Positions 524-63,414 of a stretch of 64,000 nt of DNA are shown here, piece by piece. The stretch is from a virus (taxonomy: Duplodnaviria > Caudoviricetes), in IMG/VR virus record IMGVR_UViG_3300028840_000761, positions 772 to 64,771 of that record; one strand, given 5' to 3'. Each line of letters starts with the position of its first letter. Positions within the stretch are counted from its first letter, which is position 1. The position numbers and the translations under genes are program-made. The notes beneath the pieces are model-generated. The model worked only from the letters and a program-made list of their open reading frames with translations, had not been told where the DNA came from and did not search any database.

Positions 524-1210
524 ATGACCAGACTCCAGATGCTCAACGAGCTGCGTGTCAAGATTGACGACACACAGGCTCGTAAGAAGTGGCAGGACAG
601 GGAACTCCTAGCGTTCCTTGCCGAGGGACAAGATAAATTCTGCGAAGATACAGGGTACTTCACAGACGTCTCTACGTTCACTGTCGATACGATCATTGAT
701 CAGGCTGTCTATGACATTCCTGAGCGGATCATTTCGATCAAGGACATCTGGTATGGCACGAAACGGTTAGGCAGGTATCAGGAGTACCTGAAAGCATGGG
801 GTATCCCCTCCATCGACTCCTTTACCTTCAACCCTGATGGACAGACGCCGTACCTCTGGCAGGCCGATGAAGAGACGGGCGTTCTGACCCTGTACCCAAC
901 ACCTCAAGAAGAGGTCACTCTCAACCTCCGGGTCTGGCGGTACTCGTTGTATTCCCTCGACGATGAAGACATCGATGGGAATGGGACACCGGCCAGCCCG
1001 GAGTTACCATTCAGGCTCCAGCGGGCTTGTATCGAATGGGCCGCGTTCAAGGCATACTCTGACCATGATGCAGAGAAGGGTGACACGACAGAAGCACAAG
1101 ACCACATGGCCGCGTACAGACTATACGTGACCGATGGCAAGAAGGCGATTCGTAGACGCCAGTCTGAAGAGACGACAGTAAACGGCAACCCGACATACCT
1201 GCTGAGGTGA
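524..1210 (+). CDS. Putative head-tail adaptor protein
   Basis: 228 aa. The pattern W-x-D-x-EL...EGQDKFC...LYPTP...PELP resembles podovirus adaptors, and the position after the head genes fits. Confidence 0.6.
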   Translation: MTRLQMLNELRVKIDDTQARKKWQDRELLAFLAEGQDKFCEDTGYFTDVSTFTVDTIIDQAVYDIPERIISIKDIWYGTKRLGRYQEYLKAWGIPSIDSFTFNPDGQTPYLWQADEETGVLTLYPTPQEEVTLNLRVWRYSLYSLDDEDIDGNGTPASPELPFRLQRACIEWAAFKAYSDHDAEKGDTTEAQDHMAAYRLYVTDGKKAIRRRQSEETTVNGNPTYLLR

Positions 1211-1211
1211 T

Positions 1212-2183
1212 ATGGGTAAGCTCAAGTTTAAGTTCGGGGGCGTGAACAATGTCCTTGACTCCGCAGAAGTCAACCAGCGTGATGACTACCGTGCGCCATA
1301 TACTGGTATGGTACAGGGCACCGATATAGATATCAGCGATCGTATGGCTGTGCGTCGTCGACCGGGGCGTGAGGTTGCCGCTCTGATCCCTAACGCTCAC
1401 AGTCTATGGTCGCCGGAAGGACACGAGTGGGCTTATTACGTCAGCAGCTTTGGCCTGTGGAAGCTCTCTCCCGTGTATCTTTCTTACCTCAAGGCCACGC
1501 TGACTTCAGACGCTCCGATGGCGTATGTCGATGTGAACAGCGCATTCGTCTACTCCAACGGAGTCGATATAGGGGTACTGGTGAATGACGATGCCTCCTC
1601 ACGACCCAGCACCCAGAAGGTAGGGCGCATCCCGCTTAAACCCGGGGTGTGCCTTGCTTTCTATAACGCTCGTGTTTACAGCGCAGCTCTTGATGGTGTG
1701 CTCTATTACACCGATCCACATGATCTCGACTACATGACTGAAGACCACTGCCGTATCCCGCTTGGTGGGGTAGGCACGATGGTGCAGGCAGTGGATAACG
1801 GGCTGTGGGTATCGACCGGTAAGAAGCTGGCATTCCTTGCCGGAGATGATGCGGATACTTTCCAATGGCAGGATCATGGTGAATACTTTGCCATCCCCGG
1901 CGCGAGTATGAGGGTGTCCACAAAGAAGATGCGCGGTATGAATTTGCCCGGTAAATGGTGCGCTGTCTGGGCGTCGGTCAAGGGTGTGTGTATCGGCACG
2001 GCAGATGGCAACCTGATCAACCTATCCGAAGAAACTTATTCCTATGCGCCCGGGAACAGGGGGGCTATAATGCTGCGTGAGACCGAAGGGCTTGTGCACA
2101 TTGTTGTGTCGCTCCAGTCCGCCGGAACGAACTATAACCAAGACTCAACAACGATAGCCCCGAGCAGGCTGGTGTTGAACTAA
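1212..2183 (+). CDS. Virion tail/nozzle-like structural protein
   Basis: 323 aa, beta-rich, starts FGGVNN...RRRPG and follows the adaptor gene. Confidence 0.5.
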   Translation: MGKLKFKFGGVNNVLDSAEVNQRDDYRAPYTGMVQGTDIDISDRMAVRRRPGREVAALIPNAHSLWSPEGHEWAYYVSSFGLWKLSPVYLSYLKATLTSDAPMAYVDVNSAFVYSNGVDIGVLVNDDASSRPSTQKVGRIPLKPGVCLAFYNARVYSAALDGVLYYTDPHDLDYMTEDHCRIPLGGVGTMVQAVDNGLWVSTGKKLAFLAGDDADTFQWQDHGEYFAIPGASMRVSTKKMRGMNLPGKWCAVWASVKGVCIGTADGNLINLSEETYSYAPGNRGAIMLRETEGLVHIVVSLQSAGTNYNQDSTTIAPSRLVLN

Positions 2184-2193
2184 GGAGGAAATC

Positions 2194-2988
2194 ATGTCGC
2201 TTCGCTATTCGACTGGACTGAGAAACGCACTCGCTGCGGGCAAAGACCTCGCTTCGGCTCTCGCCGAGGGACGTCTGTTTGTCTACAGTGGCGCACAACC
2301 CGCTGACCCGGACACTGGTGCGGATGCCTTCACCACTCTGGTGATCTTCACCAAGGACGGCAACGCCTACACAGCCCCGGCCTCAGCCACCGGCTCGATT
2401 ACCCTCTCGGGTAGCGGCGTCGGCGGTGGATCGGTCGACACTCTCAAGGTCGGCGGTATGGCCGAGAACCTTCTCGGCGGTTCTGTACCGTGGAACACTG
2501 ACCTCGCTACCACGACAGATGATGTGGCGGATGCAATCAACGCGACCAAGAACGCGCTTGAGATCATCGCTGTCTCTGATGGCGTGGACACTGTCACCCT
2601 GTACGCTCCGATTCGTCTCGGTGCACAGGCCGCTGGCCTGACGGTTGCGTCGACTGAGACTGCTGGCACTTCGCTGGCTGTCGCCGACACCGGTTTCACC
2701 GGCGGCACTGATGCAGTCAACGGTCTGAACCTGACCTTCCCGGCGGCTGCTGGTGTTATCACCAAGGACTCCGACACATGGTCTGGCACCGTGCTGGCCA
2801 GCGGTAACGCAGGCTGGTTCCGGTTCGTCGCAGGTGGCAGCTCACCGAATGGCAGCTCCACTACTGATGTCCGCATGGACGGCACCATCGCAGTCGGCGG
2901 CGGCGATATGACCGTGTCGACTCTGGCTCTGGCCATCAGCAACGTCGAGACATTCAGCACATTCCAGTTGACGATCCCGGCCAGTTAA
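2194..2988 (+). CDS. Virion structural (tail) protein
   Basis: Strong SD TAAGGAGG. G/T/A-rich, with the recurrent phage motifs MSLRYSTGLRN and AGWFRF...RMDG. Confidence 0.6.
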   Translation: MSLRYSTGLRNALAAGKDLASALAEGRLFVYSGAQPADPDTGADAFTTLVIFTKDGNAYTAPASATGSITLSGSGVGGGSVDTLKVGGMAENLLGGSVPWNTDLATTTDDVADAINATKNALEIIAVSDGVDTVTLYAPIRLGAQAAGLTVASTETAGTSLAVADTGFTGGTDAVNGLNLTFPAAAGVITKDSDTWSGTVLASGNAGWFRFVAGGSSPNGSSTTDVRMDGTIAVGGGDMTVSTLALAISNVETFSTFQLTIPAS

Positions 2989-3000
2989 AAGGAGCCAGCT

Positions 3001-3780
3001 ATGGCTACTTGGTCATTTGACGGATCGCTACCAGTAGCATCTTCCTCCAGTGAGTTCACCGGCGGGTGGGGGTTAGTAGCAACCCTGCCCGTCATGACTC
3101 TGGAGGCGGCGTATAAGACCGGCTGGAAGCTGGATGCGGAAGTCCGGCTCGTACCCAGACTCTCGTCTTCGTCGCGCCAGAAGTGGAGAATGGCTGGCGA
3201 GCTGCCAGTGGCTGTCATGTCGGCAGTATTCTCGCACGGCAATACATGGTCGCTCGATGCCACACTCCCAGTCGTTGAGATGGAAGGCTACTTCTATCTC
3301 ATCGATGCAGATTCCCAGACCGCCTTCTGCCTGAACCCAATGAACCGTGCCCATGCCGAGTACACGAACTTCGCGTTCAACAGTTTCTGTGAATTTAATG
3401 GCGCGTTTCTTGGACTCGACTCCATTGGTATCTATACCCTGACAGGTGAAGACGATGCCGGTACCCCGATCGACTCCTCCTTACGATTCGGCCCGGTAGA
3501 TGAGGACAGCAGCAAACAGAAGCGGGTGGACAGCGTTTACCTCAACTTACGCCATGACGGAGAAATCAATGTACTGATGAAGTATGACGAGATGGAAGAA
3601 GACGTCTCAGTAATCGATCATGATCCGACTATCGATCCGGTTGGCATTTACACACGACGAGCCAAGTTTAGCAGAGGGGCAAGAGGCAGGAACCTTCAGG
3701 TTGGGATCGAGAATGTATCCGGAGCTGACTTCGAGATAGTTGATCTTCTGGTGGTGACCGTACCTCTGTCGAGGTCATGA
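3001..3780 (+). CDS. Virion structural protein
   Basis: 259 aa with SD AAGGAG, inside the structural operon. Confidence 0.5.
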   Translation: MATWSFDGSLPVASSSSEFTGGWGLVATLPVMTLEAAYKTGWKLDAEVRLVPRLSSSSRQKWRMAGELPVAVMSAVFSHGNTWSLDATLPVVEMEGYFYLIDADSQTAFCLNPMNRAHAEYTNFAFNSFCEFNGAFLGLDSIGIYTLTGEDDAGTPIDSSLRFGPVDEDSSKQKRVDSVYLNLRHDGEINVLMKYDEMEEDVSVIDHDPTIDPVGIYTRRAKFSRGARGRNLQVGIENVSGADFEIVDLLVVTVPLSRS

Positions 3781-5150
3781 ACAAACTCCACATAAACACC
3801 AACGGTGCGGATGCTGATGCGTGGCGTGGCAAAGCCGTTCAGTTATTCCGTGCTTGTGAGCGCCAACGTGTCAAGCTGGGGAAACGTACTCTCCAGCTTG
3901 TTCGTCAATTTGGTGATGTGACCATCAAGGTTCGTTCCACTACCTATACCGCTGGCAACATCGCGTGGATTTCAGCTGGCGGCGTCTACACTACCTTGCT
4001 CATGATCACCGATGCTCGTATCACCATCGATGCGTTCTGGGATTACAGCGGTGGATACTCCTGCGACCAGTATCAAGTCGTCGACCCGTACGACAACATC
4101 AACGAAGACCTCGCTACTGGTTTAGCCTCGTTCTTCCCATACAACGTATACCCGGTACCAACATTCAATGATGGCGTAGCGACCAGCGATCCCGATCGCA
4201 GCTACGCATTGGACTCTATCCACATCGTGCAGTTCAACTACTCTGGTATACCAGCGTACGAGCTGCGCATGTACATCCAGAGGGATGGAGTCACAGTCGA
4301 CAGCGACACCTTACTGTGGTCTTCCGAGACTGTGTTTATCGGAACCCCCGGCTGGGCAGGTAGCTGGGTCATATCGTCCAGACCATACGCCACCTCTGCC
4401 ATAGACACATGGCTAGGGGCTGGCTCTGCTTTCGGCTACACGGTGATGGGCGTCGTCGGCAACTTCACGATGAACAACAAGCTCTACACGTTCTACCACG
4501 AACAAAGCGCCGGTGTGAGGTACTGGTACCTGCTGGGGTTCTCCATGACTGACGGTTCATTGGTCGAGGACTACCTACTGACGAACAGCATCTCTACGTC
4601 TATCCTGCCGATGCAGCGCCAACCGCTGGTGTTCTTCCACGACAACACCAATATCGCAGGCGACGAGGTGGTCTACACTGTGAGGCGGGATACCGACATC
4701 ATGGTACATGATCTGCGCACCGGGTCGGTTATCGAGTCCGTCCACTCCCTGACAGGGTTAGGCGGCGGCACCCTTGAGCTGCGTGACTTGGCTGTAACCG
4801 AGACCTACGTCTACGTGCTGACCCGCGAGTATAACGGATCGGACTTCGATCTGGTCGTTCATCGTGCTCCGCGTTTCACAACCGTGGCCCCAGTGTCGTG
4901 GACGACCATACTGTCTGTGAATACGGACGGTACGTGGCACTTCGGCAACAACTCGTTCTACACTATTGCTGTGTCAAGCGACGATAGCAAACTGTTCACT
5001 TGTTGGCGGGAAGGGGCGTCTGCGTTCATGACAACGCAGCTGTGCTACTTTAAGGTGTATGATATATCTGCTCTGCCTGCTACGTTGGAGCATTCGGAGA
5101 ACTCTTTGACCGATCCATCACCGAATATTATCGACTTGAAATACATATGA
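3777..5150 (+). CDS. Putative tail/receptor-binding protein (beta-propeller-like)
   Basis: 457 aa with ATGA overlap. A basic N-terminus is followed by aromatic-rich beta-strand segments. Confidence 0.4.
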   Translation: MNKLHINTNGADADAWRGKAVQLFRACERQRVKLGKRTLQLVRQFGDVTIKVRSTTYTAGNIAWISAGGVYTTLLMITDARITIDAFWDYSGGYSCDQYQVVDPYDNINEDLATGLASFFPYNVYPVPTFNDGVATSDPDRSYALDSIHIVQFNYSGIPAYELRMYIQRDGVTVDSDTLLWSSETVFIGTPGWAGSWVISSRPYATSAIDTWLGAGSAFGYTVMGVVGNFTMNNKLYTFYHEQSAGVRYWYLLGFSMTDGSLVEDYLLTNSISTSILPMQRQPLVFFHDNTNIAGDEVVYTVRRDTDIMVHDLRTGSVIESVHSLTGLGGGTLELRDLAVTETYVYVLTREYNGSDFDLVVHRAPRFTTVAPVSWTTILSVNTDGTWHFGNNSFYTIAVSSDDSKLFTCWREGASAFMTTQLCYFKVYDISALPATLEHSENSLTDPSPNIIDLKYI

Positions 5151-30261: not shown

Positions 30262-30270
30262 AGTGGTCTC

Positions 30271-30759
30271 CTAGTAGCAGAAGTCGTCGCCGGGTTGCGG
30301 GTAGACCCGCTCACCAGTTACCGGATCATCGTAGCACCCGTCAGATACGAGGCTACCTACTGGGGCACCACCAGATTCAGCACCAGCGCCCCCGCCACTA
30401 TCACTATCGCCGCCACCAGAGCCACCACTACCAGAGCCTCCACCGGCTCCACCGTTCCCTTCCGAACCTGAGCCACCTCCGTTACCAGAGCCACCAGAAC
30501 CACCGCCACCATTATTACCACCGTTACCACCTGAACCATTGGAGCCTCCGTTACCGCCCCCTGCGTTGCCGTTGCCGGAGTCGTTGCCTTGGTTACCACC
30601 ATCGACACCACCGACTCCACCACCGGAGTTACCCCCACCATGGCCACCATGGCCACCACCTTGTCCTGAGTTACCGGCATCACTGCCGTTGCCACGCCCC
30701 GCATAACAAGGGGCAGTGGCGATGATCAGAACGACCAGATATACAATAAGTTTTTTCAT
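30271..30759 (-). CDS. Secreted glycine-rich protein
   Basis: Signal peptide MKKLIVYLVVLIIATAPCYA, a long G/N/S low-complexity body and a two-Cys C-terminus. Confidence 0.7.
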   Translation of the reverse strand: MKKLIVYLVVLIIATAPCYAGRGNGSDAGNSGQGGGHGGHGGGNSGGGVGGVDGGNQGNDSGNGNAGGGNGGSNGSGGNGGNNGGGGSGGSGNGGGSGSEGNGGAGGGSGSGGSGGGDSDSGGGAGAESGGAPVGSLVSDGCYDDPVTGERVYPQPGDDFCY

Positions 30760-30761
30760 GG

Positions 30762-30965
30762 TTATTTCCTCCTGCATCCGTCAGAGTTTATGACGGGGTC
30801 AAAGATAGAATGAGTTCTGTCGATGTTGCTGTGGCACAACGGACAGAACTTCCGGATCGTACCTTTGAAGTTATAAGGCACGTCGACTTTGGTAGGTACC
30901 CCGCACTTCATGCAGGGTACCTTGATCGTCTTGGGTTTATATGGGTCGTACTGGATGGTGCTCAT
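30762..30965 (-). CDS. Small zinc-ribbon protein
   Basis: CMKCG...FCPLC. Confidence 0.6.
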   Translation of the reverse strand: MSTIQYDPYKPKTIKVPCMKCGVPTKVDVPYNFKGTIRKFCPLCHSNIDRTHSIFDPVINSDGCRRK

Positions 30966-31315
30966 CTGACACGCCCCTCAAGGTGAGACCACAACATCGC
31001 CTTGAGTTTGTTGTCCGTCAAGGACAGGGTCGAGTAGTACAGGGGAATCCTGATGTGGATATCCCCTTCCTTCGGGACGAGGTGGCACAGCGTACCGGCA
31101 CGGTTGACGAACGCTGTCCACTTGGCGAAGGTGCTACAATCCAGTGCCTTCTCTTCGAGAGAGGCCCGGAGATCACAACCACGTTTGAGGTGGATGCCAT
31201 TGATTGTCGGGGTGCTGGTCAGACCAATGGCCTTTTCGAGGCGAGCGCGTGCTTCTCTTCGCATCGCTTCGCGGCGGGTGTAACATGTACTTTCGTCATA
31301 CCATCTTGCTCTCAT
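30962..31315 (-). CDS. Hypothetical protein
   Basis: SD TAAGGAG; ATGA overlap with the next gene. Confidence 0.6.
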   Translation of the reverse strand: MRARWYDESTCYTRREAMRREARARLEKAIGLTSTPTINGIHLKRGCDLRASLEEKALDCSTFAKWTAFVNRAGTLCHLVPKEGDIHIRIPLYYSTLSLTDNKLKAMLWSHLEGRVR

Positions 31316-31318
31316 AGT

Positions 31319-31516
31319 CTATCTCCTTACGTTAATGTAACCGGGAATCCGGTAAGTAAAGTACCGGCATCGCTTGCCACTACTGGCAGTGCGACACTGG
31401 CTGTCAAATTTGTCGGTGTGCACCAGCTTCTCGTGGTGTGCACACCAACCCAAAACCTTCGCTCCTTTCTCTCGTTTGGGTCGGCGTTTACTCAGCCGAG
31501 TCCTCTTTCTTGACAT
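31319..31516 (-). CDS. Small basic Cys/His protein
   Basis: MSRKRTRLSKRRPK...WCAHH...C...C. Start set after GAGG. Confidence 0.5.
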   Translation of the reverse strand: MSRKRTRLSKRRPKREKGAKVLGWCAHHEKLVHTDKFDSQCRTASSGKRCRYFTYRIPGYINVRR

Positions 31517-31721
31517 ACGTCGCCTCAAGTTTTTCAAGCATGACACGACTGCGGCTGTCGGGCACAGTCTTACCGTTGCACCACCGGTTGACCGTGGCAA
31601 ACGACACACCCAGTACGTCAGCGAGCTGTGCCTGAGTACGGTGCAGTGCCGCAAGGATTGCCTTGACCCGTGCCGGTGCATTGTCGGTCGTCCACGGAGT
31701 CAATACGAGGTTGCCTTTCAT
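31488..31721 (-). CDS. XRE-family HTH transcriptional regulator
   Basis: RTQAQLADVLGVSFATVNRWCNGKTVP. Confidence 0.85.
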   Translation of the reverse strand: MKGNLVLTPWTTDNAPARVKAILAALHRTQAQLADVLGVSFATVNRWCNGKTVPDSRSRVMLEKLEATYVKKEDSAE

Positions 31722-31735
31722 AGGCATCTCCTTTC

Positions 31736-31767
31736 AAAAGGTGCGGGGTCTGACGAGCAGACCCCGC
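31736..31767 (-). terminator. Hairpin, probable terminator or attenuator
   Basis: GCGGGGTCTG-ACGAG-CAGACCCCGC (10-bp stem), followed on the - strand by ACCTTTT. Confidence 0.55.
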
Positions 31768-31775
31768 TGTTCGAG

Positions 31776-31982
31776 TTACCACCCGTGTCTGCAATAAGAC
31801 AGCTCAAAGGTGGCGCTGATGCTGTAGACCGGATACGTGTCATGTAGCGATCTCAACTTCAGCTTCCATCCATCTTCTTCTCGCTCGATCCTGTGGTCTT
31901 TGATAGCACCACGCTGACCAAGCGAGGGATCGAAGAAGCCGGGGTTGGCTAACTTCAATCGGTTAATCGTGGGTTTAATCAT
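31776..31982 (-). CDS. Hypothetical protein
   Basis: SD AAGGGAG; first gene after the promoter at 32058-86. Confidence 0.55.
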   Translation of the reverse strand: MIKPTINRLKLANPGFFDPSLGQRGAIKDHRIEREEDGWKLKLRSLHDTYPVYSISATFELSYCRHGW

Positions 31983-32057
31983 AGGCAATCTCCCTTCGTT
32001 CTAGGAGCTAGGCTGAGCCAGCCTAGCTAGTATGGTGCCACACACAGATAGATATAC

Positions 32058-32086
32058 CTTATACCACATGATATAATCAGGGTCAA
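32058..32086 (-). promoter_or_regulatory. Sigma70-like promoter with extended -10
   Basis: TTGACC(32086-81)-17 nt-TATAAG(32063-58) with a TGn extension, in an AT-rich gap. Confidence 0.6.
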
Positions 32087-32119
32087 TAAGATTATCAAAA
32101 AATGTGTGGCACAGGACAA

Positions 32120-32404
32120 TTAAAGTCCGAGCTTCCTGATCAACTCCTCATCGGACGGACAAGGATCATCAGCTGTCACCTTGTCATACCGACTCCCGCC
32201 ATTGTAGCGACGGGTGATCTCCGTTCTAATCTCCCTGCTCTTTAGGTCACGGGCAGACGAGCGGTCGAAGTTCTCCAACTCTTCCAGTGCCTTCTTCAGG
32301 GTGGAGTCAGCGAGGTTTCGGATCACGTACGGGGCGGACGGGGTATCCAGCTCCTCACCTTTACAGCCGGTTTGAAACCGATACTCGCCTCGCTTGCCGA
32401 GCAT
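32120..32404 (-). CDS. Hypothetical protein
   Basis: 94-aa ORF in the early arm; the start is uncertain. Confidence 0.45.
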   Translation of the reverse strand: MLGKRGEYRFQTGCKGEELDTPSAPYVIRNLADSTLKKALEELENFDRSSARDLKSREIRTEITRRYNGGSRYDKVTADDPCPSDEELIRKLGL

Positions 32405-32517
32405 CTCCTCGGACGCGACAGGCGTAGGGGATACAGGTGGTCGCCTACCCTTGTAGTAAGATGTGATTGGGTCAGCATCTACCTCAAAGATTGGCCCCGC
32501 CTGTACCTGTACCCCGT

Positions 32518-32841
32518 CTACTTTCCCAACAGAGAGGCGAACTCTTTGTTGACAAGTTTGAGCACAGCCTGACGCTCGGCCCGGTCAAACAACATCTTGG
32601 CCTGTGCGATCAAGACCAGCTCATCATCGTTGAATCCACGGGTCATGACTGCACTCGTGGTGCCGAGGCCGACAGTGACCAGCTCGGACAGGTTCTTCTT
32701 GGTGAGGTACGCCCCGATCTGCGAGCGGGTCAGCTCAGTGGTCAGGTCACCGGTCACCGGCATAGCCAGCGACAGTTGGTTCCCATCGAGTTTACCAACA
32801 AACACTTCACCATCTACCTTCACGACTTTACAATTTTCCAT
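32518..32841 (-). CDS. Hypothetical protein
   Basis: SD AAAGGAG; phage-typical codon use. Confidence 0.7.
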   Translation of the reverse strand: MENCKVVKVDGEVFVGKLDGNQLSLAMPVTGDLTTELTRSQIGAYLTKKNLSELVTVGLGTTSAVMTRGFNDDELVLIAQAKMLFDRAERQAVLKLVNKEFASLLGK

Positions 32842-32882
32842 GACATTTCTCCTTTGGTTGGTGACAGGTTGATACCTGCCGG

Positions 32883-34004
32883 TTAGTTTGCAATCTGCTT
32901 GAGTTCTTTACCGATGCCCTCGAAGTCAAGCAGTTGCTGGTACACTGGGTCTGTATCAAAGAGGATCATGGACTTGATAACTTCCAGCTCATCCTCCGTG
33001 AACTGATGGACGAGGCCGTGCAGGATATGACCACAGGTACAGTCACACCATGTCTCCCCACACATCAGGCACTGTCTGCTATGGCCGTCCGTCATCTCTT
33101 CGTCGATGAAGTCCCAGAACAGTATTTCAAGCAGGTCGAGGTCGTCCTCCTGCCAGTCACGTTCCGGCTGCCTTGTGCCGTCGCCGTCGTCCTCATCTTC
33201 TTCCATGTAATCAGCAGTGGTGACGTTGTTGAACTTCGAGTATCCGTAGTAATCGTAGTCGTCATAACCCCCGTACTTGTACCCGTTTCCGTAACTGCGA
33301 AATCGGGGCACCACCGGATACAGTTCGGTAAGCGGATCGACGATCATATCGATGACACGATCCACGGTCAGGAGGAGTTCGTCGAAATGCTGGTACTCAC
33401 GGCTGGAGTGTTGTTCATAGTAGCCGATGGACAGGTTGACGCTCGGAATGAAGTACGCATCAGTCAGGTCAGCGATGTCGGAGTAGCTACCCCATCCGGA
33501 CTTGAAGCCGAACGACTCGACGTACTGCTCGACTTTCTTGTCGATGTCGGCGTAGGTCACATACTCGGTGGCACCCTTGCGATCGAGTTCCACCATGAGA
33601 TTGATGTGCTCGATCTGCAACTCATCCGAGGTGATGAACGCCTTGACGCCACGGCCACCGCTCTCCTCGTAGTTGGTGATAAGGATGCTAGGCTTGGCCA
33701 GCTTAGCTTCCTCGCACTCCCTGAGTACCTCGATGATACCGAAGATACCGGCCCGGTCATCCCCGCCGAGCGGATCAGGGTGCTTGTTGGTCAGGACGTT
33801 ACGGTTCACCACGACCTTGCACTTCTTGCGGGTCACGGTATCCATGTGAGCCACGAGCAGGATCGGACTGGCGTTGTCCTGATAGAAATAGTTATCTCCA
33901 TCTGTGATGTAGTCTCCTTTCTTGAAGTAGTTCTTTTGCAGGTACTTGAATATCTGTTCGTTAGGAACCTCCAGCAGTTTGACGAACTCTTTGAGCTTGG
34001 TCAT
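32883..34004 (-). CDS. M20/M28-family zinc metallopeptidase
   Basis: LLVAHMDTV, LGGDDRAG, EESGGRG, ELDRKG, SYSDI and SVNLSIGYYEQH. Confidence 0.8.
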   Translation of the reverse strand: MTKLKEFVKLLEVPNEQIFKYLQKNYFKKGDYITDGDNYFYQDNASPILLVAHMDTVTRKKCKVVVNRNVLTNKHPDPLGGDDRAGIFGIIEVLRECEEAKLAKPSILITNYEESGGRGVKAFITSDELQIEHINLMVELDRKGATEYVTYADIDKKVEQYVESFGFKSGWGSYSDIADLTDAYFIPSVNLSIGYYEQHSSREYQHFDELLLTVDRVIDMIVDPLTELYPVVPRFRSYGNGYKYGGYDDYDYYGYSKFNNVTTADYMEEDEDDGDGTRQPERDWQEDDLDLLEILFWDFIDEEMTDGHSRQCLMCGETWCDCTCGHILHGLVHQFTEDELEVIKSMILFDTDPVYQQLLDFEGIGKELKQIAN

Positions 34005-36061
34005 TATATTGCCTCCTCTTCTGGTTCGGCGCAGTCTTCACAGACTCCGTCCTCGTTAAGATCATCGGTGTCACACAGGACGGCGCACTCATTACACCCA
34101 GAGAAGTTGTCCTCTAGGCACGCTTGGCACACCTCGCGTCCGTCCTCAGCGATGGTCGTTATGGTGTCGTTCTCCTTGTACTCGTGGCAGATGTCACATT
34201 CTGTGACGTGATCACCCTGACAGTCTGAGCAGTAGGTGTGCCCGCTCTCGGTGTAGATGTAGTCATCGGTGTAGTCATAGCATTCTTCGCATCCGACCAA
34301 CCCTTGGTTTTCTATGCAGTGTGGACACCAGCTATCACCGGAGACCGACCGTGCATCGTCGTTCGAGGTGGTCTCGCCACAATGGGCACAGTGGAAGTAG
34401 GACTCATAGAAGCACGCCTCACAGTACGAATCCCAGTCGGTGTAGTACGCGTTATCGGTGCTGACTTCATCTCCGCAACAACCACAGCTGGTGTATGACT
34501 CATAGTAACAGGACTCACAGTGGGTGCGCCCATGCTGGTCACGGTATATATCGTTCTGACCGACATGCCCATCACAACCACAGCAGATGCCGTCGCTATT
34601 GGTGTGATATGAGCAGTCAGGGCAAAGGATAGCGGAGGTGGAGATGCCGGTCTCATCACAGAAGATACAGGCGACCCGCTTGAACGGTGGCGTGGCGGCC
34701 TGTGGGTGCGAGTGCCGTTCGGAATCATGACGTAGATAGTCAGACTCCCCGCCATCGAAGTACACGCCATACGCATACGACTGGCTACACAGCCCAGCCG
34801 ACCGCTTGATCCAGTGGTTGTGGAGTCCCATGGTACGGGCGATCGAACGCTCAATGACCTGACGTCCGAGCTTACGGTGGTGGTCGGTGAATGATCCGTA
34901 GCTCCGGCTGAAGATGAAGTCTAGGCCGGACTGGCCTAGGTAGACAAAGGCACGACCAGTTTTCTTGGTCGGCGTTCCGACATAACAGAGGAACGTGAAG
35001 TCATCCCTGAGATAAGACGCCACCGATGCGAAGTACTCACCACCCGGGCGCAGACAGGAGCTGAAGCCACCATCATGCGAGCAGGTCAGGATGTCACTCG
35101 GGTTGGCTGACAGGTACATGTCAATGAACGGTGACCCGAGGATTTCTCCCAGCTTCGACCAGAAGATACTTGCCCGGTACACACCCTCTTTACTGCGTGA
35201 GCCTGTCTCTTGCAGTACCCACTGGGATATTGCGCTGTCGCCATCACCGACCAAGTTCTTCAGGAAACGAGTCGCTTTGTGCTCGACTCCCTGAGAGTCG
35301 GTGATCAACGCCCGAGGCGTGGTCGTGAGCGTGAAGCCATTCTCATTCTCCAGCTGTTCGATCCAGTGCCTGAGCTGAGGGCCGAGATGATCCCGGCTGT
35401 TCTCGGGCAGGTCGACCTTGACCTTGAGTCGGAGCGTGTCCGGATTCAGACCAAGCAGGTTGGTCACACGGTGTTTGTTGTCAACGAACTCTTCAACGTG
35501 TTCCTCACACAGTTCGCCGACAGGCAGGCCACATTCCATCATTCTCTGACGGAACTCCTCGTAAATAGTCATACGATAGTCCTCCTCTATGGCTGTGAAG
35601 TTAATGTCTGGCTCCTCATCCTCGTCCACAATGGGCGGGGCCGGAGGTTCGGGTGTCTCATAAATCGTGAAGTTGTTCCATGTACCGATCTCACCATTGA
35701 CAAGCTCGCCGAGTGACTGACCGGTAAGGCGGTTGGTCGACTGAACAGCTGTGTTGTAGGTCACGCTCTCAACATTGGCACGTAGCTCTGCCATGTGCTG
35801 ACCGTACAGCTTGCGCCATTCGCCAAGTATGTTGAAGTTGGCTGAGTCAGCCGCCTCATCCGTGATAACAGCGGTCGCTGTATACCCACTGATCGTGTCA
35901 CTGATCTCCAACTGGGTTGTGCACGCCACATCAAACGGCTCGTACCTGCGGAAGCGTACGGTATCGCTACCCCGTGGCCGGAACCCAAACCTCTCGGAGA
36001 AAGGGACATAGTCAGCGGTACTGGCTAGACCGGTACGCCACAAGCGGGATAGAAATGACAT
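34004..36061 (-). CDS. Capsid-paralogue fragment in frame with a multi-zinc-finger protein (internal start likely at 35572)
   Basis: Residues ~25-136 align with the MCP at 62416. GAGGAGG precedes Met at 35572. The C-terminal third carries 14 CxxC motifs. Confidence 0.7.
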   Translation of the reverse strand: MSFLSRLWRTGLASTADYVPFSERFGFRPRGSDTVRFRRYEPFDVACTTQLEISDTISGYTATAVITDEAADSANFNILGEWRKLYGQHMAELRANVESVTYNTAVQSTNRLTGQSLGELVNGEIGTWNNFTIYETPEPPAPPIVDEDEEPDINFTAIEEDYRMTIYEEFRQRMMECGLPVGELCEEHVEEFVDNKHRVTNLLGLNPDTLRLKVKVDLPENSRDHLGPQLRHWIEQLENENGFTLTTTPRALITDSQGVEHKATRFLKNLVGDGDSAISQWVLQETGSRSKEGVYRASIFWSKLGEILGSPFIDMYLSANPSDILTCSHDGGFSSCLRPGGEYFASVASYLRDDFTFLCYVGTPTKKTGRAFVYLGQSGLDFIFSRSYGSFTDHHRKLGRQVIERSIARTMGLHNHWIKRSAGLCSQSYAYGVYFDGGESDYLRHDSERHSHPQAATPPFKRVACIFCDETGISTSAILCPDCSYHTNSDGICCGCDGHVGQNDIYRDQHGRTHCESCYYESYTSCGCCGDEVSTDNAYYTDWDSYCEACFYESYFHCAHCGETTSNDDARSVSGDSWCPHCIENQGLVGCEECYDYTDDYIYTESGHTYCSDCQGDHVTECDICHEYKENDTITTIAEDGREVCQACLEDNFSGCNECAVLCDTDDLNEDGVCEDCAEPEEEAI

Positions 36062-36064
36062 TGA

Positions 36065-36268
36065 TCACCCCGCTTTCTCCCTGTCATGCTTCTCGCACAG
36101 GGCATCACTGACTTCTTTGAGGTGTGCCACACACTCTTCCAACCGGCCACTCATCATACTGATGGTGAAGTACGGGACGTTCAACCCTTCCGGTTCCACG
36201 CAGAATAGTATGCGTGCGGCGTAGGTGGCGAAGTCATGCAACAATTCGTTCTCTTTCTTTTTGTTCAT
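36065..36268 (-). CDS. Hypothetical early protein
   Basis: SD AAAGGAGG immediately after the palindrome at 36289. Confidence 0.7.
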   Translation of the reverse strand: MNKKKENELLHDFATYAARILFCVEPEGLNVPYFTISMMSGRLEECVAHLKEVSDALCEKHDREKAG

Positions 36269-36303
36269 CGTTCCTCCTTTCTGAGGAGCTAGGCTGGGTC
36301 AGC

Positions 36304-36795
36304 CTAGCTCTCGTATTCGGCGTCCGACAGGCAGGAGTCGGCGTCGGAGATGTAGGTACGTGCCCGGTCGATGTACTCCATGATTCTCTGGTGCGTATCG
36401 GAATCGACAGAGTTATCCAGACGCTCAACCAACTGGTTCATCTGCCACTCGGAGATTTCCTGTGCCATATACATCAGGGCACTCAGGTTGGACAGACGGA
36501 AGGTGATCTGCTCGTGCTTGGTCACGATGTTCTCCTCTTCCTCGGTCTCGGTCGAGATCACCGGGACTTTCGGTTCCTGACAACATGTGGTACGGGGCAG
36601 TGCTTCGAGGTCGATGTCCTCGGACACACCACCGGCGATGACGTGGCCACAGTCCGGGCACACTACGCTGTGGATGGTGTTGATCACAGGTTCGTTGACC
36701 TGCGTCTGCTTGGTCAGCGCGATAGTCGGCTGGCCGGACGCATCATCAAGGGACAGGGAAAAAGTGGTGTTGCCGTTAGTGAGTGTACGTTCCAT
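36304..36795 (-). CDS. Hypothetical early protein (CPDC motif)
   Basis: SD TAAGGAGG; the TAG stop is supplied by the palindrome. Confidence 0.7.
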   Translation of the reverse strand: MERTLTNGNTTFSLSLDDASGQPTIALTKQTQVNEPVINTIHSVVCPDCGHVIAGGVSEDIDLEALPRTTCCQEPKVPVISTETEEEENIVTKHEQITFRLSNLSALMYMAQEISEWQMNQLVERLDNSVDSDTHQRIMEYIDRARTYISDADSCLSDAEYES

Positions 36796-36807
36796 TGGTA
36801 GACCTCC

Positions 36808-37245
36808 TTAGTCTAGGGTGATGCCGAGATCGGCACAGAGACGGTCGAGCTTCTTCTCGATCGCCAACAGTTTGGCAGAGATGATCCCTTCCATGTGGTG
36901 CATGAACGACAGCAGTTCATCACTGGACAGGGGCGGTTCGGGTACGGGTTGCGACTCCACACCGATCGGCGCAGGGTCAGGGCCAAGGATGAACAGCTTC
37001 GCTCCGTACTTACCCTTCTGTATGGAGACATGCACTTCATCCCTCTCGATCAGGACATTCAAGCGGTTCTGCACAGTGTGCGCGGCCAGCTTGTAGCCCT
37101 GCCTGTCGTGGAACTTCTTGGCCAAGTCCTTGACGGCCAGCCCTTTTGGATGAGCCTTGCCGAGCAAGTCTTTGATGGCCTCAAGCTCCATCTCGATTGC
37201 CTTTTGGACAGTCGGACTGTTGTACTGGTTGTCTCCCCTTGGCAT
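36808..37245 (-). CDS. Putative winged-helix DNA-binding protein
   Basis: GLAVKDLAKK...AHTVQNRLNVLIERDEV...GAKLF pattern; SD AAAGGAGG. Confidence 0.5.
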   Translation of the reverse strand: MPRGDNQYNSPTVQKAIEMELEAIKDLLGKAHPKGLAVKDLAKKFHDRQGYKLAAHTVQNRLNVLIERDEVHVSIQKGKYGAKLFILGPDPAPIGVESQPVPEPPLSSDELLSFMHHMEGIISAKLLAIEKKLDRLCADLGITLD

Positions 37246-37259
37246 GGGAGTCCTCCTTT

Positions 37260-37478
37260 CTACGGGCAACACCCGCAACAGGGTGCATCTTCGCACCGGT
37301 CAACGACACCGATCTGGTTGCCTTCGCCATCGAAGACACCGTTCGGATTCAGCAGGCTGTTGAGCTGAGCATGGCACATGTGATAGCCACACACATCACA
37401 GCCCGCACCATACTCATCGTACTCCAGAAATTCTGGAGTGATACGGTTCCCACAGCTGGGACATTCCATTGTTCTCAT
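37260..37478 (-). CDS. Small Cys-rich protein
   Basis: CPSCG, CDVCG and a C-terminal CEDAPCCGCC. Confidence 0.65.
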   Translation of the reverse strand: MRTMECPSCGNRITPEFLEYDEYGAGCDVCGYHMCHAQLNSLLNPNGVFDGEGNQIGVVDRCEDAPCCGCCP

Positions 37479-37480
37479 AG

Positions 37481-37783
37481 TTACTCTCCTTCCAGTCGAG
37501 CGATTACTTGGTTGAGGGAATTGAACACCATGTAGCTGACCTCACCTCCTCCAGCGAGGTAGGCTTCCAGTCTCTCATTGAACTGTTGTCCAGTCGTGGG
37601 CAACGCATACCGGATACTGTCATGCAAGTCACGCAGAGTTGCCTCTCCCATGTTGGCGATCGACCCAAGGATCAACAGGTCATTGACGTCACGCAGACGT
37701 ATCGTCATTTCCATCGGGAACTGATCGTCTACCGACTTCTCTTCCTCTTCTTCTTCTTCGATCCAGTCGTCTAGATCGGGCAT
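37481..37783 (-). CDS. Hypothetical early protein with acidic N-terminus
   Basis: SD AAAGGAGGTGA right after the palindrome at 37803; starts MPDLDDWIEEEEEEE. Confidence 0.7.
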   Translation of the reverse strand: MPDLDDWIEEEEEEEKSVDDQFPMEMTIRLRDVNDLLILGSIANMGEATLRDLHDSIRYALPTTGQQFNERLEAYLAGGGEVSYMVFNSLNQVIARLEGE

Positions 37784-37817
37784 GATTTCACCTCCTTTCG
37801 AGCTAGGCTGAGCCAGC

Positions 37818-38330
37818 CTAGATATTCCGGTACGAGTCAGTCTGGAGACGCCAGTAGTCCCAGCCCCCACGCGCACCAATGTGGTCAATCGAGCCGACCG
37901 AGGTCAGCCAGTTGCCACAGCAGTCACCGTCCGCCTCGCAGATAGCACACGAGCAGGACGTTCTGTTGAAGTAGTCATACAGGGCGTTCTGGATGTCGGT
38001 CGCCCGTATGTCAGGTGGTGTGTGTTCGGTCGAGCACACCCGCACGATGATCTCACGGGTCACTCGGTCATCACCGGCCTCGTCTGCGTAGTAGTTGATG
38101 GTCTTGTTCATGATCTCCTGCATATCCACGAGGTAGCGGTCATCATCGAGGTGCTTGTAGGCAGACTTGTACTTATGCGTCAGCCTCTGGTACAGGTGTG
38201 TCGAGCGATGGCCGACCGGCTCCATCTCGACACCATCACACCCTTCACACGGGTTGTACGCCCACTTGTCCTCAACGATCTCAAGACGCCCGCAACACGG
38301 GCACTCAACAGCACTGGTCGGGTCAGCCAT
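37818..38330 (-). CDS. Hypothetical Cys-rich early protein
   Basis: SD GGAGGTGA; the TAG stop is supplied by the palindrome. Confidence 0.7.
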   Translation of the reverse strand: MADPTSAVECPCCGRLEIVEDKWAYNPCEGCDGVEMEPVGHRSTHLYQRLTHKYKSAYKHLDDDRYLVDMQEIMNKTINYYADEAGDDRVTREIIVRVCSTEHTPPDIRATDIQNALYDYFNRTSCSCAICEADGDCCGNWLTSVGSIDHIGARGGWDYWRLQTDSYRNI

Positions 38331-38700
38331 AAATCACCTCCGAGAAACATGCGAGTTGTAAGAAAATGTCAGCGTCCTCTGCGTCATAAGACTCATCAAA
38401 CAATGAGTGCAGTCGCAGTGGGAACTGGATGGACATGGCATCGAGCGCATACTGCAAGCATTGTGCATCGATAATCACTTCACCATCCCCCTCGATCATG
38501 GTGATCTTCATGCGACCGAACATCGGGATCGTGCAGTAGCGAGGCCACTCGTGCGCCCACTTGGGTGCGCTTTCAGGCAACGGATCGATGTAGCTAATGT
38601 CCTCGATCCACGAGGACGAATAACCCTCGAACGCGCCGCACAGGATGTACGCCATCTGCTTCTCGGTCAGTTTGACCGGCACATCAACAGAAAATTCCAT
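38323..38700 (-). CDS. Hypothetical early protein
   Basis: AFEGYSSSWI...DAEDADIFLQLACFSEVIYG, a recurrent phage C-terminal motif. Confidence 0.7.
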   Translation of the reverse strand: MEFSVDVPVKLTEKQMAYILCGAFEGYSSSWIEDISYIDPLPESAPKWAHEWPRYCTIPMFGRMKITMIEGDGEVIIDAQCLQYALDAMSIQFPLRLHSLFDESYDAEDADIFLQLACFSEVIYG

Positions 38701-39125
38701 TAGGTGTCACCTCCTTCAAAGTAGTGGTCGAGAGACTTCAGAGCCTCTTTCGCCTGCTCGACAGTGACCGCTCCGGTTTCCAGTTCGTACGACATTTCCT
38801 CGAAGCGATCGGCTTCCATTCGGAGATCGTGCGCCGCTTCCTCCAGCTCCTCGGCCAACACGTTGAGCCTGTCGTACCGCTCCTCGAAGTCAGGCATGTG
38901 ATCGATGTAGATCATCTTGTCGAGGTCGGATTTCTCATACCCAACCTCCGAGTCATACTCGATCTCCCGGCGTTCGAGGTCGAACCGCTTGGCTGTCCAG
39001 AGTGGCGGATCATCCGACTCTGTCCAATACGTGTGTGGCCCCACACTTGTGACGACCATCGTGCCGAGGCGCGGGCTGAGAAAGATCGTCCCGACCCGAA
39101 CCTGTTCTGCTGTGAGTAGTGCCAT
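38700..39125 (-). CDS. Hypothetical early protein
   Basis: SD GGAGGTGA after the palindrome at 39147; acidic coiled-coil C-terminus. Confidence 0.7.
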   Translation of the reverse strand: MALLTAEQVRVGTIFLSPRLGTMVVTSVGPHTYWTESDDPPLWTAKRFDLERREIEYDSEVGYEKSDLDKMIYIDHMPDFEERYDRLNVLAEELEEAAHDLRMEADRFEEMSYELETGAVTVEQAKEALKSLDHYFEGGDT

Positions 39126-39130
39126 TGGTT

Positions 39131-39547
39131 TCACCTCCCTTTCTTTCTAGGCTGAGCCAGCCTAGATACATAATCGGCGATCTCTTTCGCCGTCTCCGGT
39201 GTATTGCCGACCAACAGGCCGTTCTTCGGCGTGACGAGCGCGAGTGCGACCGCATTCATGTACGTGGTCATGTCCTCACTCAAGGAGAAGCACTCCTTAC
39301 CGAAGTAATAGGCGGCAGCGTCCTGATCGACCTCATTCCAGTCATCGATGGTGTCCCAGCGGTGACCACAGCACGGACAGCACCCGCACGAGTCATACGC
39401 GGCGTACATCCCGCTGTCCTCGCAGAAGTCAATGAACGGGGCCGCGGCGATCATGGCCTGCTCGGGTGAATCGGCCTCGATGAACACAAAGACCGCGGGC
39501 GGGCGGAAGTGCCCGCCACTGTTGTTTTGCCTTACCAGAAAGATCAT
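39131..39547 (-). CDS. Conserved phage protein (QNNSGG motif)
   Basis: RQNNSGGHF...FIEADS...CPCCGHRW; SD GGAGGTGA. Confidence 0.7.
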   Translation of the reverse strand: MIFLVRQNNSGGHFRPPAVFVFIEADSPEQAMIAAAPFIDFCEDSGMYAAYDSCGCCPCCGHRWDTIDDWNEVDQDAAAYYFGKECFSLSEDMTTYMNAVALALVTPKNGLLVGNTPETAKEIADYVSRLAQPRKKGR

Positions 39548-39921
39548 GATTTCACCTCCATCAGTTTGAGTTGTTCGGCCATCTTCATGCACTGCTGGAC
39601 ACAGTACTCGGTCGAGCGCACGACACCTCGTATGTGCGAGGCAAACTGCGGGTTGTACCCTTTCAGGCGCGGATCGGGCGCGTCGTTGTAGTGAGCGCAG
39701 TCGAAGCCGATGGTGAGCGTGCCGTCGTCATTCAGCTGGGTGTAGGTCACACCCCCATGACAGTCGATCGTGTTCTCGATCTCATAGTCACCCTCATGGT
39801 AAAGGTCGATGGCCGGATGGCCGACAGGCACAGTGACATAGCCACAACGGAAGCCCATCCCGTTGTTGACCACCTCGCATTCAAAGCCGAGGTACGGAAA
39901 CTTCTTGAGTGAGTCTCGCAT
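39544..39921 (-). CDS. Conserved phage protein
   Basis: FRCGYV...HP...CHGGVTY...IGFDCAH recurrent motif. Confidence 0.75.
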   Translation of the reverse strand: MRDSLKKFPYLGFECEVVNNGMGFRCGYVTVPVGHPAIDLYHEGDYEIENTIDCHGGVTYTQLNDDGTLTIGFDCAHYNDAPDPRLKGYNPQFASHIRGVVRSTEYCVQQCMKMAEQLKLMEVKS

Positions 39922-62406: not shown

Positions 62407-62415
62407 GAGTAAATC

Positions 62416-63414
62416 ATGAACGACGTTTTGACCTATGGCGATATTTCGCCCCGTACCGCAGCCTTTGCCGCAGCTGAGATGCTGCGCCGTGGCCGTCCTT
62501 ACCTGATCCTCCAGCCTTTTGGCCAGAGCCGTCCGATCCCTCAAAATCGTTCGGACACGATCAAGTTCCGCCGCTACGAAGCTCTCGACCCGGCCACCAC
62601 GCCGCTGACCGAAGGTGTCACCCCGCAAGGTAACACCATGACGGCCACTGACGTGCAGGCCACTCTGCAACAGTACGGCGATTACGTCCCGATCAGCGAC
62701 AAGATCATGGACACCCACGAAGACCCGGTCTTCAAGGAAGCACAGGCCGTCACCGGTGAGCAGGCAGCTGACACCGTTGAAATCCTGCTGTTCAACGTCC
62801 TCAAGGCCGGTACCAACGTGTACTACTCGACCGGCGCATCCCGTGCCGCCGTCACCCTGCCGATCAGCCTCGGTCTCCAGCGCAAAGTCATCCGTGGCTT
62901 CAAGCGCCAGAAGGCCCGCATGATCACCAAGAAGCAGGACTCCTCGGTGAAGTTCAATACCGAGAACGTCGCCAAGGGCTTCATCGCCTTTGTGCATCCT
63001 GACATGGAGAATGACATCCGCGCCATGGCCGGGTTCATCGATGTCAAGGATTACGGCTCCATGACTCCGCACGATTCGGAGATCGGTGCCGTCGAGTCCG
63101 TCCGTTATCTGTACTCCACGATCTTTGAGTCGTGGGCAGATGCCGGTGGTGCCAACGCAGCCATGATCGGAACCACTGACCCGGCAGCCAATGTCGACGT
63201 CTACCCGGTCATCTACGTCGCAGCCGACTCCTTCGCAGTCACCCCGCTCAAGGGTAAGAACGCCATCATGCCGATGGTTCTGAACCCGGGCGTGCCTCGT
63301 GAAGGCGACCCTCTGGGTCAGCGCGGCTACGTCGGCTGGAAGACATGGTTCGCAGCCTGCATCCTGAACCAAGTCTGGATGGCCCGTGCCGAAGTGGCAG
63401 TCAGCGATCTCTAA
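62416..63414 (+). CDS. Major capsid protein, N4-gp56 family
   Basis: TYGDISPRT, IKFRRY, PLTEGVTP, QYGD, EIG and DPLGQRGYVGWK motifs. Confidence 0.92.
   Translation: MNDVLTYGDISPRTAAFAAAEMLRRGRPYLILQPFGQSRPIPQNRSDTIKFRRYEALDPATTPLTEGVTPQGNTMTATDVQATLQQYGDYVPISDKIMDTHEDPVFKEAQAVTGEQAADTVEILLFNVLKAGTNVYYSTGASRAAVTLPISLGLQRKVIRGFKRQKARMITKKQDSSVKFNTENVAKGFIAFVHPDMENDIRAMAGFIDVKDYGSMTPHDSEIGAVESVRYLYSTIFESWADAGGANAAMIGTTDPAANVDVYPVIYVAADSFAVTPLKGKNAIMPMVLNPGVPREGDPLGQRGYVGWKTWFAACILNQVWMARAEVAVSDL

Follow-up and report, generated by a model that had tools for sequence, protein, structure and literature searches.

Capsid-derived sequences in phage genomes

Phage genes are known mosaics, and capsid paralogues that run the whole length of the parent protein are also known. 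The vertex protein gp24 of T4, for example, is a full-length intragenomic paralogue of the major capsid protein (MCP). In capsids with the HK97 fold, the E-loop and the spine helix touch neighbouring subunits. Phages also nest a long and a short product in one reading frame, as in lambda C/Nu3 and T7 gp4A/4B. In the T4 capsid protein gp23, a stretch of about 100 residues in the first quarter binds EF-Tu on its own and forms the most conserved part of gp23 (PMC3014915). The Gol region of gp23 binds EF-Tu and activates the Lit protease.

The open reading frame (ORF) described here, P0001, has an N-terminus that is most directly compared with the MCPs of the N4-gp56 family (TIGR04387; PF25209, Phage_capsid_4). 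Common to both are the spine helix and, ahead of it, the two strands of the E-loop, the first with its F-R-R and then the return strand. It differs in having about a quarter of the fold, with neither the P and A domains nor the E-loop tip, and in being fused to an unrelated protein whose gene is in the replication block, on the strand opposite to the MCP gene. Paralogues of the gp24 type resemble P0001 in being a second MCP-derived sequence in one phage genome, but they are complete HK97 folds, structural in function and encoded in the head module, whereas P0001 carries a fragment on a non-structural protein. The Gol region offers a functional parallel, in showing what a captured piece of an MCP N-terminus might still be able to do, although Gol belongs to the capsid protein proper and the P0001 segment is a separate, fused copy. 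The lambda and T7 pairs are like the pair of products predicted for P0001, in that there is an in-frame internal start with a strong ribosome-binding site of its own. Literature searches found no partial HK97-fold capsid fragment in frame before a non-structural protein.

Genomic context

All positions refer to the window, which is the whole stretch of 64,000 nucleotides that was analysed. P0001 is an ORF of 685 aa on the minus strand (34004..36061), consisting of an N-terminal module, an acidic linker, a conserved core and a series of zinc-ribbon repeats. The MCP of the same phage, P0002, is a 332-aa protein of the N4-gp56 family with the HK97 fold, encoded on the plus strand (62416..63414). 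The sequence-only reading that drew attention to this locus had placed both genes correctly, on opposite strands and about 26 kb apart.

The P0001 gene has small ORFs on one side and genes for a peptidase, a DNA polymerase, a helicase and a primase on the other. This places it in the replication block, on the minus strand, and outside the head module. Immediately downstream is the gene for the peptidase, which is of the M28 family (32883..34004, minus strand). Upstream, in the same frame as P0001, is an ORF of 67 aa (36065..36268, minus strand). The MCP gene is preceded by ORFs of 718 and 300 aa, taken from their position as the putative portal and scaffold; with the MCP gene they occupy 59146-63414. 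A promoter and terminator scan of 33800-38600 gave matches at shuffle level only. Contigs from two DNA sequencing runs are identical to the window over 30000-40000; being possibly the DNA's own source, they offer no polymorphism for a selection test.

The N-terminus is homologous to N4-gp56 capsid proteins

Residues ~27-110 of P0001 (35732..35983, minus strand) are homologous to residues 41-134 of the N4-gp56-family MCPs, and we regard this as close to certain. The segment comprises the end of the N-arm, the E-loop with a shortened tip, and the spine helix, and the part of the phage's own MCP that pairs with it is encoded at 62536..62817 on the plus strand. A BLASTP comparison of the P0001 N-terminus with the MCP gives an E value of 4e-7, with 27 of 104 positions identical. 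The Smith-Waterman score of the whole N-terminus against the phage's own MCP is 85 (Gumbel p ~8e-7), whereas shuffles average 32 (sd 5) and none of 2000 reaches it in either direction. The profile alignment against N4-gp56 MCPs that had been proposed as a check is significant: against a profile of 43 MCPs, hhalign reports a probability of 93.7% and an E value of 1.9e-7, pairing query residues 27-110 with MCP residues 41-134. A hidden Markov model (HMM) built from the same alignment of 43 MCPs scores the N-terminus at 15.9 bits, and the reversed sequence at -2.0; the highest of 5000 shuffles reached 8.3. When this HMM was run on 34 ORFs of the window, the MCP scored 598.6 bits and P0001 11.1 bits (E 2.6e-4), the next ORF scoring 1.8 bits. 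Among 18950 NCBIfam models the sole match is TIGR04387 (capsid_maj_N4; E 0.0022), in which aa 33-106 align to profile positions 43-129, with a score of 17.4 bits that misses the curated family threshold of 60. A search within the genome pairs the fragment and the MCP in both directions, with E values of 8.7e-4 and 0.0027.

Other searches did not report the relationship. PF25209 is not reported for P0001 even at E <= 10, the MCP-like segment is missing from the results of the phrog_1357 and Pfam searches, and a phmmer search of P0001 against 1.84 billion proteins returned no MCPs at E <= 0.001. In the ESM Atlas, the clusters nearest to aa 1-145 reach at most 0.88, and the three named sets among them are capsid families, which we treat as a lead only.

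The similarity can be divided into blocks. The first two proposed by the sequence-only reading hold up individually: aa 1-46 against MCP residues 1-62 score 59 (0/2000 shuffles, maximum 41), and aa 47-110 against MCP residues 63-134 score 45 (0/2000 shuffles, maximum 42). The two are collinear and are separated by a 13-residue deletion. The third block (GEIGTWNNFTIYET against SEIGAVESVRYLYST; GEIGTW...) does not survive, in that aa 111-163 against MCP residues 135-332 score 22, a value equalled or exceeded by 1496 of 2000 shuffles. This block lies in the tail of the module (aa 111-137; 35651..35731, minus strand), where the MCP HMM has no match and where there is a weak match to phrog_267 (E 0.019). 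It was thus right that a gene of the early region opens with MCP-derived sequence, but because the third block is at chance level, the part that is demonstrably MCP-like is ~84 aa and not the ~136 aa claimed.

A 15-residue stretch, aa 32-46 (SDTVRFRRYEPFDVA; 35924..35968, minus strand), is the E-loop strand motif, and 10 of its residues are identical to the phage's own MCP. Of the first E-loop strand, the F-R-R that is invariant in the family is still present, as is the nearly invariant Y. Several other residues that are invariant among the MCPs have gone, through the deletion of the E-loop tip motif and the replacement of H101 and D103. The idea that the fragment is a paralogue of the phage's own MCP needs to be widened to kinship with the N4-gp56 family, without specificity for the MCP of this phage. 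When 120 family members are ranked by similarity to the fragment, the own MCP comes 23rd (a score of 85, compared with 104 for the best), the identity of the fragment to all sampled MCPs is 26-33%, and no similarity to the own MCP gene is present at the DNA level.

Chance or compositional similarity, for which it can be said that this one motif supplies 55 of the raw score of 85 (by hand count) and that the Pfam, phrog_1357 and phmmer searches were silent, has a negligible probability, given that the second block is significant by itself and collinear with the first, that four methods give the same coordinates, that neither shuffled nor reversed sequence reaches the HMM score, and that the same HMM gives the control N-terminal extensions of two relatives -2.7 bits (P0004) and -2.4 bits (P0006).

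A further match to the MCP profile, at the start of the record, was rejected as a second fragment, being terminal redundancy of the assembly.

Structural elements retained

On the basis of the models, the fragment would correspond to the E-loop hairpin, shortened by a tip deletion of 13 residues, and the spine helix that comes after it. The predicted structure of the MCP (pLDDT 84.8) matches the solved N4 capsid structure 9e99, and over the aligned positions it has strands at 48-54 and 77-93 and a helix at 104-131. The full-length model of P0001, generated from an alignment free of MCPs, has strands at 36-39, 49-54 and 61-66 and a helix at 74-105. The agreement in secondary structure rests on a poor model, because the pLDDT of the N-terminal part is ~30. 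For the full-length AlphaFold model the pLDDT is 48, which is too poor for a fold search.

The P and A domains (profile positions 134-330) are missing from the fragment, since the tail scores at chance and the HMM is silent there. The description of the fragment as a miniaturised MCP is therefore not borne out: from the two structure models, what appears to be retained is the E-loop and the spine helix and not the whole fold. A complex prediction for aa 1-145 together with the MCP gave a score of 0.00, which weighs neither for nor against binding.

A protein family with exchangeable N-termini

The remainder of P0001 belongs to a rare family of phage proteins. Its relatives are P0003, P0004, P0005, P0006 and P0128, which are 23-48% identical to it over more than 400 aa, with E values from 2e-147 to 1e-74. 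All of them share with P0001 the core and the zinc-ribbon array. In an alignment of five sequences, over 100 columns are invariant, among them K262-L270, I299-P311 and G331-P339. The conserved core (aa 255-440; 34742..35299, minus strand) contains the motifs KATRFLKNL, IFWSKLGEILGSP and GGFSSCLRPGGEYF. It matches only phrog_18912, which is of unknown function, and in the ESM Atlas only unnamed viral clusters.

The zinc-ribbon array (aa 465-677; 34031..34669, minus strand) has 14 CxxC motifs, corresponding to about seven putative zinc-binding repeats with a period of ~32 aa. LIM proteins in the PDB match P0001 weakly (E 0.016-0.17), and the Pfam family DZR matches P0003 below the cut-off (E 8e-4). 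A Pfam search of P0001 gave no matches.

The N-termini are a different matter. The alignment of the core begins at residue 1 of P0003, residue 122 of P0004, residue ~107 of P0006 and residue ~157 of P0128. P0004 and P0006 have mutually related N-terminal extensions (E 3e-6), while the extensions of P0001 and P0128 are unrelated to all others. The match to the MCP profile is confined to P0001; the five relatives lack the MCP-like module and have N-termini of two other kinds, or none. The family thus bears at least three unrelated types of N-terminal module, or none, ahead of the same linker, core and repeats. In P0001 the linker is rich in proline and acidic residues (aa 136-163, TPEPPAPPIVDEDEEPD...; 35573..35656, minus strand). 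The N-terminal modules of the relatives also end in acid-rich stretches, that of P0128 being proline-rich as well.

Probable translation and a candidate internal start

The MCP-like segment is probably translated, judging by its uninterrupted frame and by a codon usage that resembles that of genes. A frame of 163 codons stayed open in just 17 of 20000 shuffles. The codon log-likelihood per codon is 0.351 in frame and -0.35 and -0.54 in the other frames, and 15 real genes range from 0.20 to 0.51. The ATG at 36061 sits 3 nt past the TGA stop of the upstream 67-aa ORF, and neighbouring ORFs of the block that do not overlap are 2-35 nt apart.

There is a second candidate start within the gene (35570..35587, minus strand), formed by GAGGAGG at 35581-35587 and the ATG of Met164 at 35570-35572. 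The GAGGAGG is 8 nt before the ATG, and its duplex energy of -11.7 is level with the best values among the window's gene starts. The Shine-Dalgarno sequence before the ATG at 36061 is weak and badly spaced (-8.2 at -22). In P0003, the closest homologue, the product starts at the residue that corresponds to Met164, although this start is a gene call only. Because of the very strong ribosome-binding site and the start of P0003 at this point, a short form is likely, and Met164 probably gives rise to a core of 522 aa without the module, in addition to the long product.

Some of these observations would also fit the best surviving alternative, a relic that is untranslated or has no function. In this case recombination would have brought part of an MCP gene to a place upstream, the frame would merely still be open, and the real product would start at Met164 (35572). 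This agrees with the strong site before 35572 and the weak, distant one before 36061, with the alignment of residue 1 of P0003 (515 aa, 48% identical) to residue 164, with the lack of the module in every relative, and with the loss of many MCP-invariant residues. We nevertheless consider a relic unlikely. With identity to every sampled MCP down to 26-33%, a neutrally decaying frame would be expected to have acquired stops, as the shuffles indicate, yet it is open, and the in-frame codon usage equals that of real genes. A non-coding gap of 489 nt would be an outlier against the 2-35 nt gaps of the block. Three of the four complete relatives also bear N-terminal modules, of 106-156 aa, and the deletion falls exactly at the E-loop tip, where it would spare the hairpin.

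Possible functions of the module

The explanation that we favour, and to which we give somewhat better than even odds, is that a captured fragment from the first third of an MCP, greatly diverged yet translated, serves as an interaction module of a protein made in two isoforms. The fragment looks like a captured domain and not like a small capsid protein that assembles, because it is sited where the family swaps its modules. Recombination would have captured the E-loop and spine helix of an N4-gp56 MCP at the N-terminus of P0001. The module could then be a protein-binding adaptor that shows the capsid surface around the invariant FRRY strand, and its partner might be viral, either the MCP or a capsomer, or else a host factor whose usual contact is the N-terminal region of the MCP. 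The second start at Met164, with its strong ribosome-binding site, would provide the module-less core of 522 aa as well. The swapping of N-terminal modules in this zinc-finger family hints that the module sets the target. That the fragment itself acts as an interaction module is put forward tentatively, and is if anything on the doubtful side.

A bolder proposal is that the excised E-loop and spine helix form a capsid mimic at the head of the zinc-finger protein, which would soak up or divert a host factor or immune sensor that recognises the conserved motif in the MCP N-terminus, or tether the protein to capsomers, the internal start giving both forms. We find it rather unlikely. Two further ideas had already been raised by the sequence-only reading.

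The first is that the fragment is a capsid-binding tag or a poison, which would dock on MCP capsomers or procapsids and either carry the zinc-finger protein into heads or disturb the assembly of rival phages or satellites. The E-loop, the spine helix and the invariant FRRY strand are all retained in the fragment. It is also plausible that this phage has proteins inside its virion, because it packages a polyvalent protein of very large size. However, the gene is in the replication block, away from the head genes; the P and A domains, and with them most of the capsomer contacts, are missing; and the conserved E-loop tip is deleted. Binding to its own MCP would also risk poisoning the phage's own assembly. 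We judge this role improbable.

The second, an immune decoy, appears very improbable. Here an early capsid mimic would occupy sensors of the MCP, of the Lit, CapRel or Avs type. MCP-sensing defences are known, and some of them read short MCP motifs (bioRxiv 10.64898/2026.01.04.697583). The fragment retains the most conserved short motif in the N-terminal third of the family, and the gene is among those of the early region. Against this, PADLOC gave no match and literature searches found no capsid decoys. The known MCP sensors are ligand-triggered, and an early mimic would therefore fire them sooner, unless it bound without activating them.

Returning to the captured interaction module, if the fragment is made and binds a partner, it would be a natural case in which a capsid sub-domain has found a second use, as an adaptor or mimic, and it would bear on defences and host factors that read capsid proteins through short N-terminal motifs. 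If it is not made, it would merely be a well-preserved recombination scar.

Distribution of the module and of the family

The sequence-only reading had suggested looking for the same truncated paralogue in related phages. Among 1.84 billion protein representatives no second sequence with the module was found; the only other cluster member that carries it, P0127, differs from P0001 by one residue, T156I. No relatives turned up in 50,697 phage records, whether these were searched by blastn with the whole gene or by tblastn with the N-terminal 163 aa. Searches of viral contigs and metagenome contigs for the 685-aa protein likewise found no relatives, nor did a search by way of the peptidase. A profile search from the five-member alignment added no members. 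One extra phmmer match, P0007 (E 4e-4), was rejected, being a repeat protein that matches over a stretch of 19 residues.

A scan based on the DNA polymerase identified 35 loci, of which one, L004, has homologues of both P0001 and the peptidase. L004 is the sole relative for which the DNA was read, and it shares with the present locus the adjacent M28 peptidase: the P0001 homologue is at 748..2808 and is followed by the peptidase at 2920..4083, with 36% identity.

The MCP-like segment of P0001

P0001 (685 aa) is encoded at 34004–36061 on the minus strand, and the major capsid protein (MCP, 332 aa) at 62416–63414 on the plus strand. As the sequence-only reading stated, these genes lie about 26 kb from each other, on opposite strands. 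The MCP matches PF25209 Phage_capsid_4 (E 1.4e-11) and phrog_1357 'major head protein' (E 6.7e-57), and has more than 7000 relatives, named in several sources as N4-gp56 family major capsid protein. Its AlphaFold model, with a pLDDT of 84.8, matches the N4 capsid structure 9e99, which has been solved (E 1.7e-17).

The N-terminus of P0001 had been aligned with the MCP by eye in three blocks. The similarity is real for two of these. BLASTP aligns residues 1–163 with the phage's own MCP at E 4e-7 over 104 columns, with a single 13-residue gap, and own-genome searches with either protein recover the other. By Smith-Waterman the pair scores 85 (shuffle mean 32, sd 5), which none of 2000 shuffles reached, whichever partner was shuffled. 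Block 1 (P0001 1–46, MCP 1–62) scores 59, with 0/2000 shuffles as high (maximum 41). Block 2 (P0001 47–110, MCP 63–134) is collinear with it and independently significant, since on its own it scores 45 with 0/2000 shuffles as high (maximum 42). The third block (GEIGTWNNFTIYET) fails: residues 111–163 score 22 against MCP 135–332, a value equalled by 1496/2000 shuffles, and this tail has no match with the MCP family HMM.

Profile methods agree on the first two blocks. Alignment with hhalign, using 43 family members, pairs P0001 27–110 with MCP 41–134 (probability 93.7%, E 1.9e-7). An HMM built from the 43-member MCP alignment gives the segment 15.9 bits, a score reached by 0/5000 shuffles (maximum 8.3), and the reversed segment −2.0 bits. 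Among 34 ORFs in the window only the MCP (598.6 bits) and P0001 (11.1 bits, E 2.6e-4) stand out, the next best scoring 1.8 bits. In an unbiased search with 18,950 NCBIfam models the sole match was TIGR04387 capsid_maj_N4 (E 0.0022), pairing residues 33–106 with profile positions 43–129; its 17.4 bits are far below the family cut-off of 60 bits, which a fragment would not be expected to reach.

Directly after the confirmed segment, residues 100–140 (window 35642–35764, minus) weakly match positions 217–260 of the 410 in phrog_267, another head-protein family (E 0.019). This match is backed neither by the own-MCP comparison nor by the family HMM.

The MCP model has an N-arm helix (12–29), strands 48–54 and 77–93 on either side of a tip, and a long helix (104–131). 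From the general HK97-fold layout we take the strands to be the E-loop and the long helix to be the spine helix. The 13 residues deleted in P0001 belong to the E-loop tip and include the family-invariant E66-G67-x-T69-P70. The segment retains the invariant F-R-R and nearly invariant Y of the family; H101 and D103 are not retained. The full-length model of P0001, whose underlying alignment contained no MCP, places these elements at the positions that align with the MCP (strands 36–39, 49–54 and 61–66; helix 74–105), with a pLDDT there of only about 30.

Source of the fragment

The description of the segment as a paralogue of the phage's own MCP is too specific. The own MCP ranks only 23rd of 120 family members (85 versus 104 for the best), there is no DNA similarity between the segment and the MCP gene, and phmmer found no closer source among 1.84 billion representatives. 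The fragment is thus an MCP-family derivative that is either old or fast-evolved, not a recent duplicate. Apart from P0001 itself, the only phmmer match was a spurious one to a repeat protein. At E ≤ 0.1, none of 11 near-complete related phage records has a second piece resembling an MCP; six contain one N4-gp56 family MCP and five contain none.

Translation

The segment could be a functionless or untranslated leftover upstream of a real start at Met164 (ATG at 35572). A GAGGAGG motif lies ahead of Met164, and its duplex energy (−11.7) equals that of the best starts in the window; the ribosome-binding site for 36061 is weak and distant. The closest homologue, P0003 (515 aa, 48% identical), begins at the equivalent of Met164, its start being a gene call. 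These features would equally suit a second product. Against a relic, the N-terminal frame is open for 163 codons, as in only 17/20,000 shuffles, the other five frames having 3–11 stops. The codon-usage score of this frame, 0.351 per codon, falls inside the 0.20–0.51 range of 15 real genes, whereas the other two frames give −0.35 and −0.54. The ATG at 36061 lies 3 nt past the upstream stop, which fits the 2–35 nt between non-overlapping neighbours in the block, and among the four complete relatives three likewise carry N-terminal extensions, of 106–156 aa. A relic is therefore unlikely. The open frame, codon usage and spacing, taken with the strong Met164 site and the start of P0003, make it likely that long and short forms are both made.

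The upstream 67-aa ORF (window 36065–36268, minus) is in the same frame as P0001, separated by TGA and one codon; read-through of this stop would fuse the two.

Protein family and gene neighbourhood

The P0001 core (residues about 255–440) and its cysteine repeats are common to five protein clusters. A sixth, distant family member is P0128 (686 aa), in the related phage locus L004. The sole match of the core is phrog_18912, of unknown function; the C-terminus has 14 CxxC motifs, with weak matches to LIM or zinc-ribbon domains. The N-terminal extensions are of three unrelated kinds, or absent: those of P0004 and P0006 resemble each other (E 3e-6), and those of P0001 and P0128 are each without kin. 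Every extension closes with an acid-rich stretch, which is also proline-rich in P0001 and P0128. Only that of P0001 matches the MCP profile.

Small unknown ORFs lie upstream of P0001, and peptidase, DNA polymerase, helicase and primase genes downstream. An M28-type peptidase gene directly follows both P0001 and P0128. The two peptidases (window 32883–34004, minus; L004 2920–4083) are 36% identical and have a cysteine-rich C-terminal tail, so that the zinc-finger and peptidase genes form a pair conserved in both phages. Two small ORFs (37260–37478 and 37818–38330, both minus) also carry CxxC pairs; cysteine-rich proteins are thus frequent in this gene block.

Possible function

The best-supported account of the MCP-like segment is domain capture, in which a 5' portion of an MCP gene would have joined a modular protein encoded in the replication gene block and been kept there in frame as one of several interchangeable N-terminal modules. 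A limited literature search turned up no account of a non-structural phage protein that carries a piece of an MCP.

The T4 Gol region shows that a stretch of about 100 residues within the first quarter of an HK97-fold MCP can by itself bind a host protein (PMC3014915), and several defences read the MCP, some via short motifs (bioRxiv 10.64898/2026.01.04.697583). In the light of both, it is plausible that the captured module acts as an adaptor, whose partner might be a sensor, a host factor, or else the MCP or a capsomer. The idea that it is an immune decoy, an early capsid mimic for MCP-reading sensors, carries a logical cost, since the known sensors are activated by their ligand.

Other features of the record

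The IMG/VR virus record (L040) is 64,771 bases long, of which the window spans 772–64771. Its bases 1–771 repeat window 63296–64000: a stretch of 144 nt at 100% is followed by one of 561 nt at 94.8%, and about 61 extra bases separate them. Although listed as a linear record, the assembly is therefore inexactly terminally redundant, through either circular permutation or a mixture of strains. This redundancy explains a spurious second match to the MCP C-terminus at the record start. A 3012-aa ORF (window 7869–16907, plus) has ART-PolyVal (E 2.1e-9) and LPD39 (E 1.8e-7) domains; its product is a large polyvalent protein and is presumably carried in the virion.
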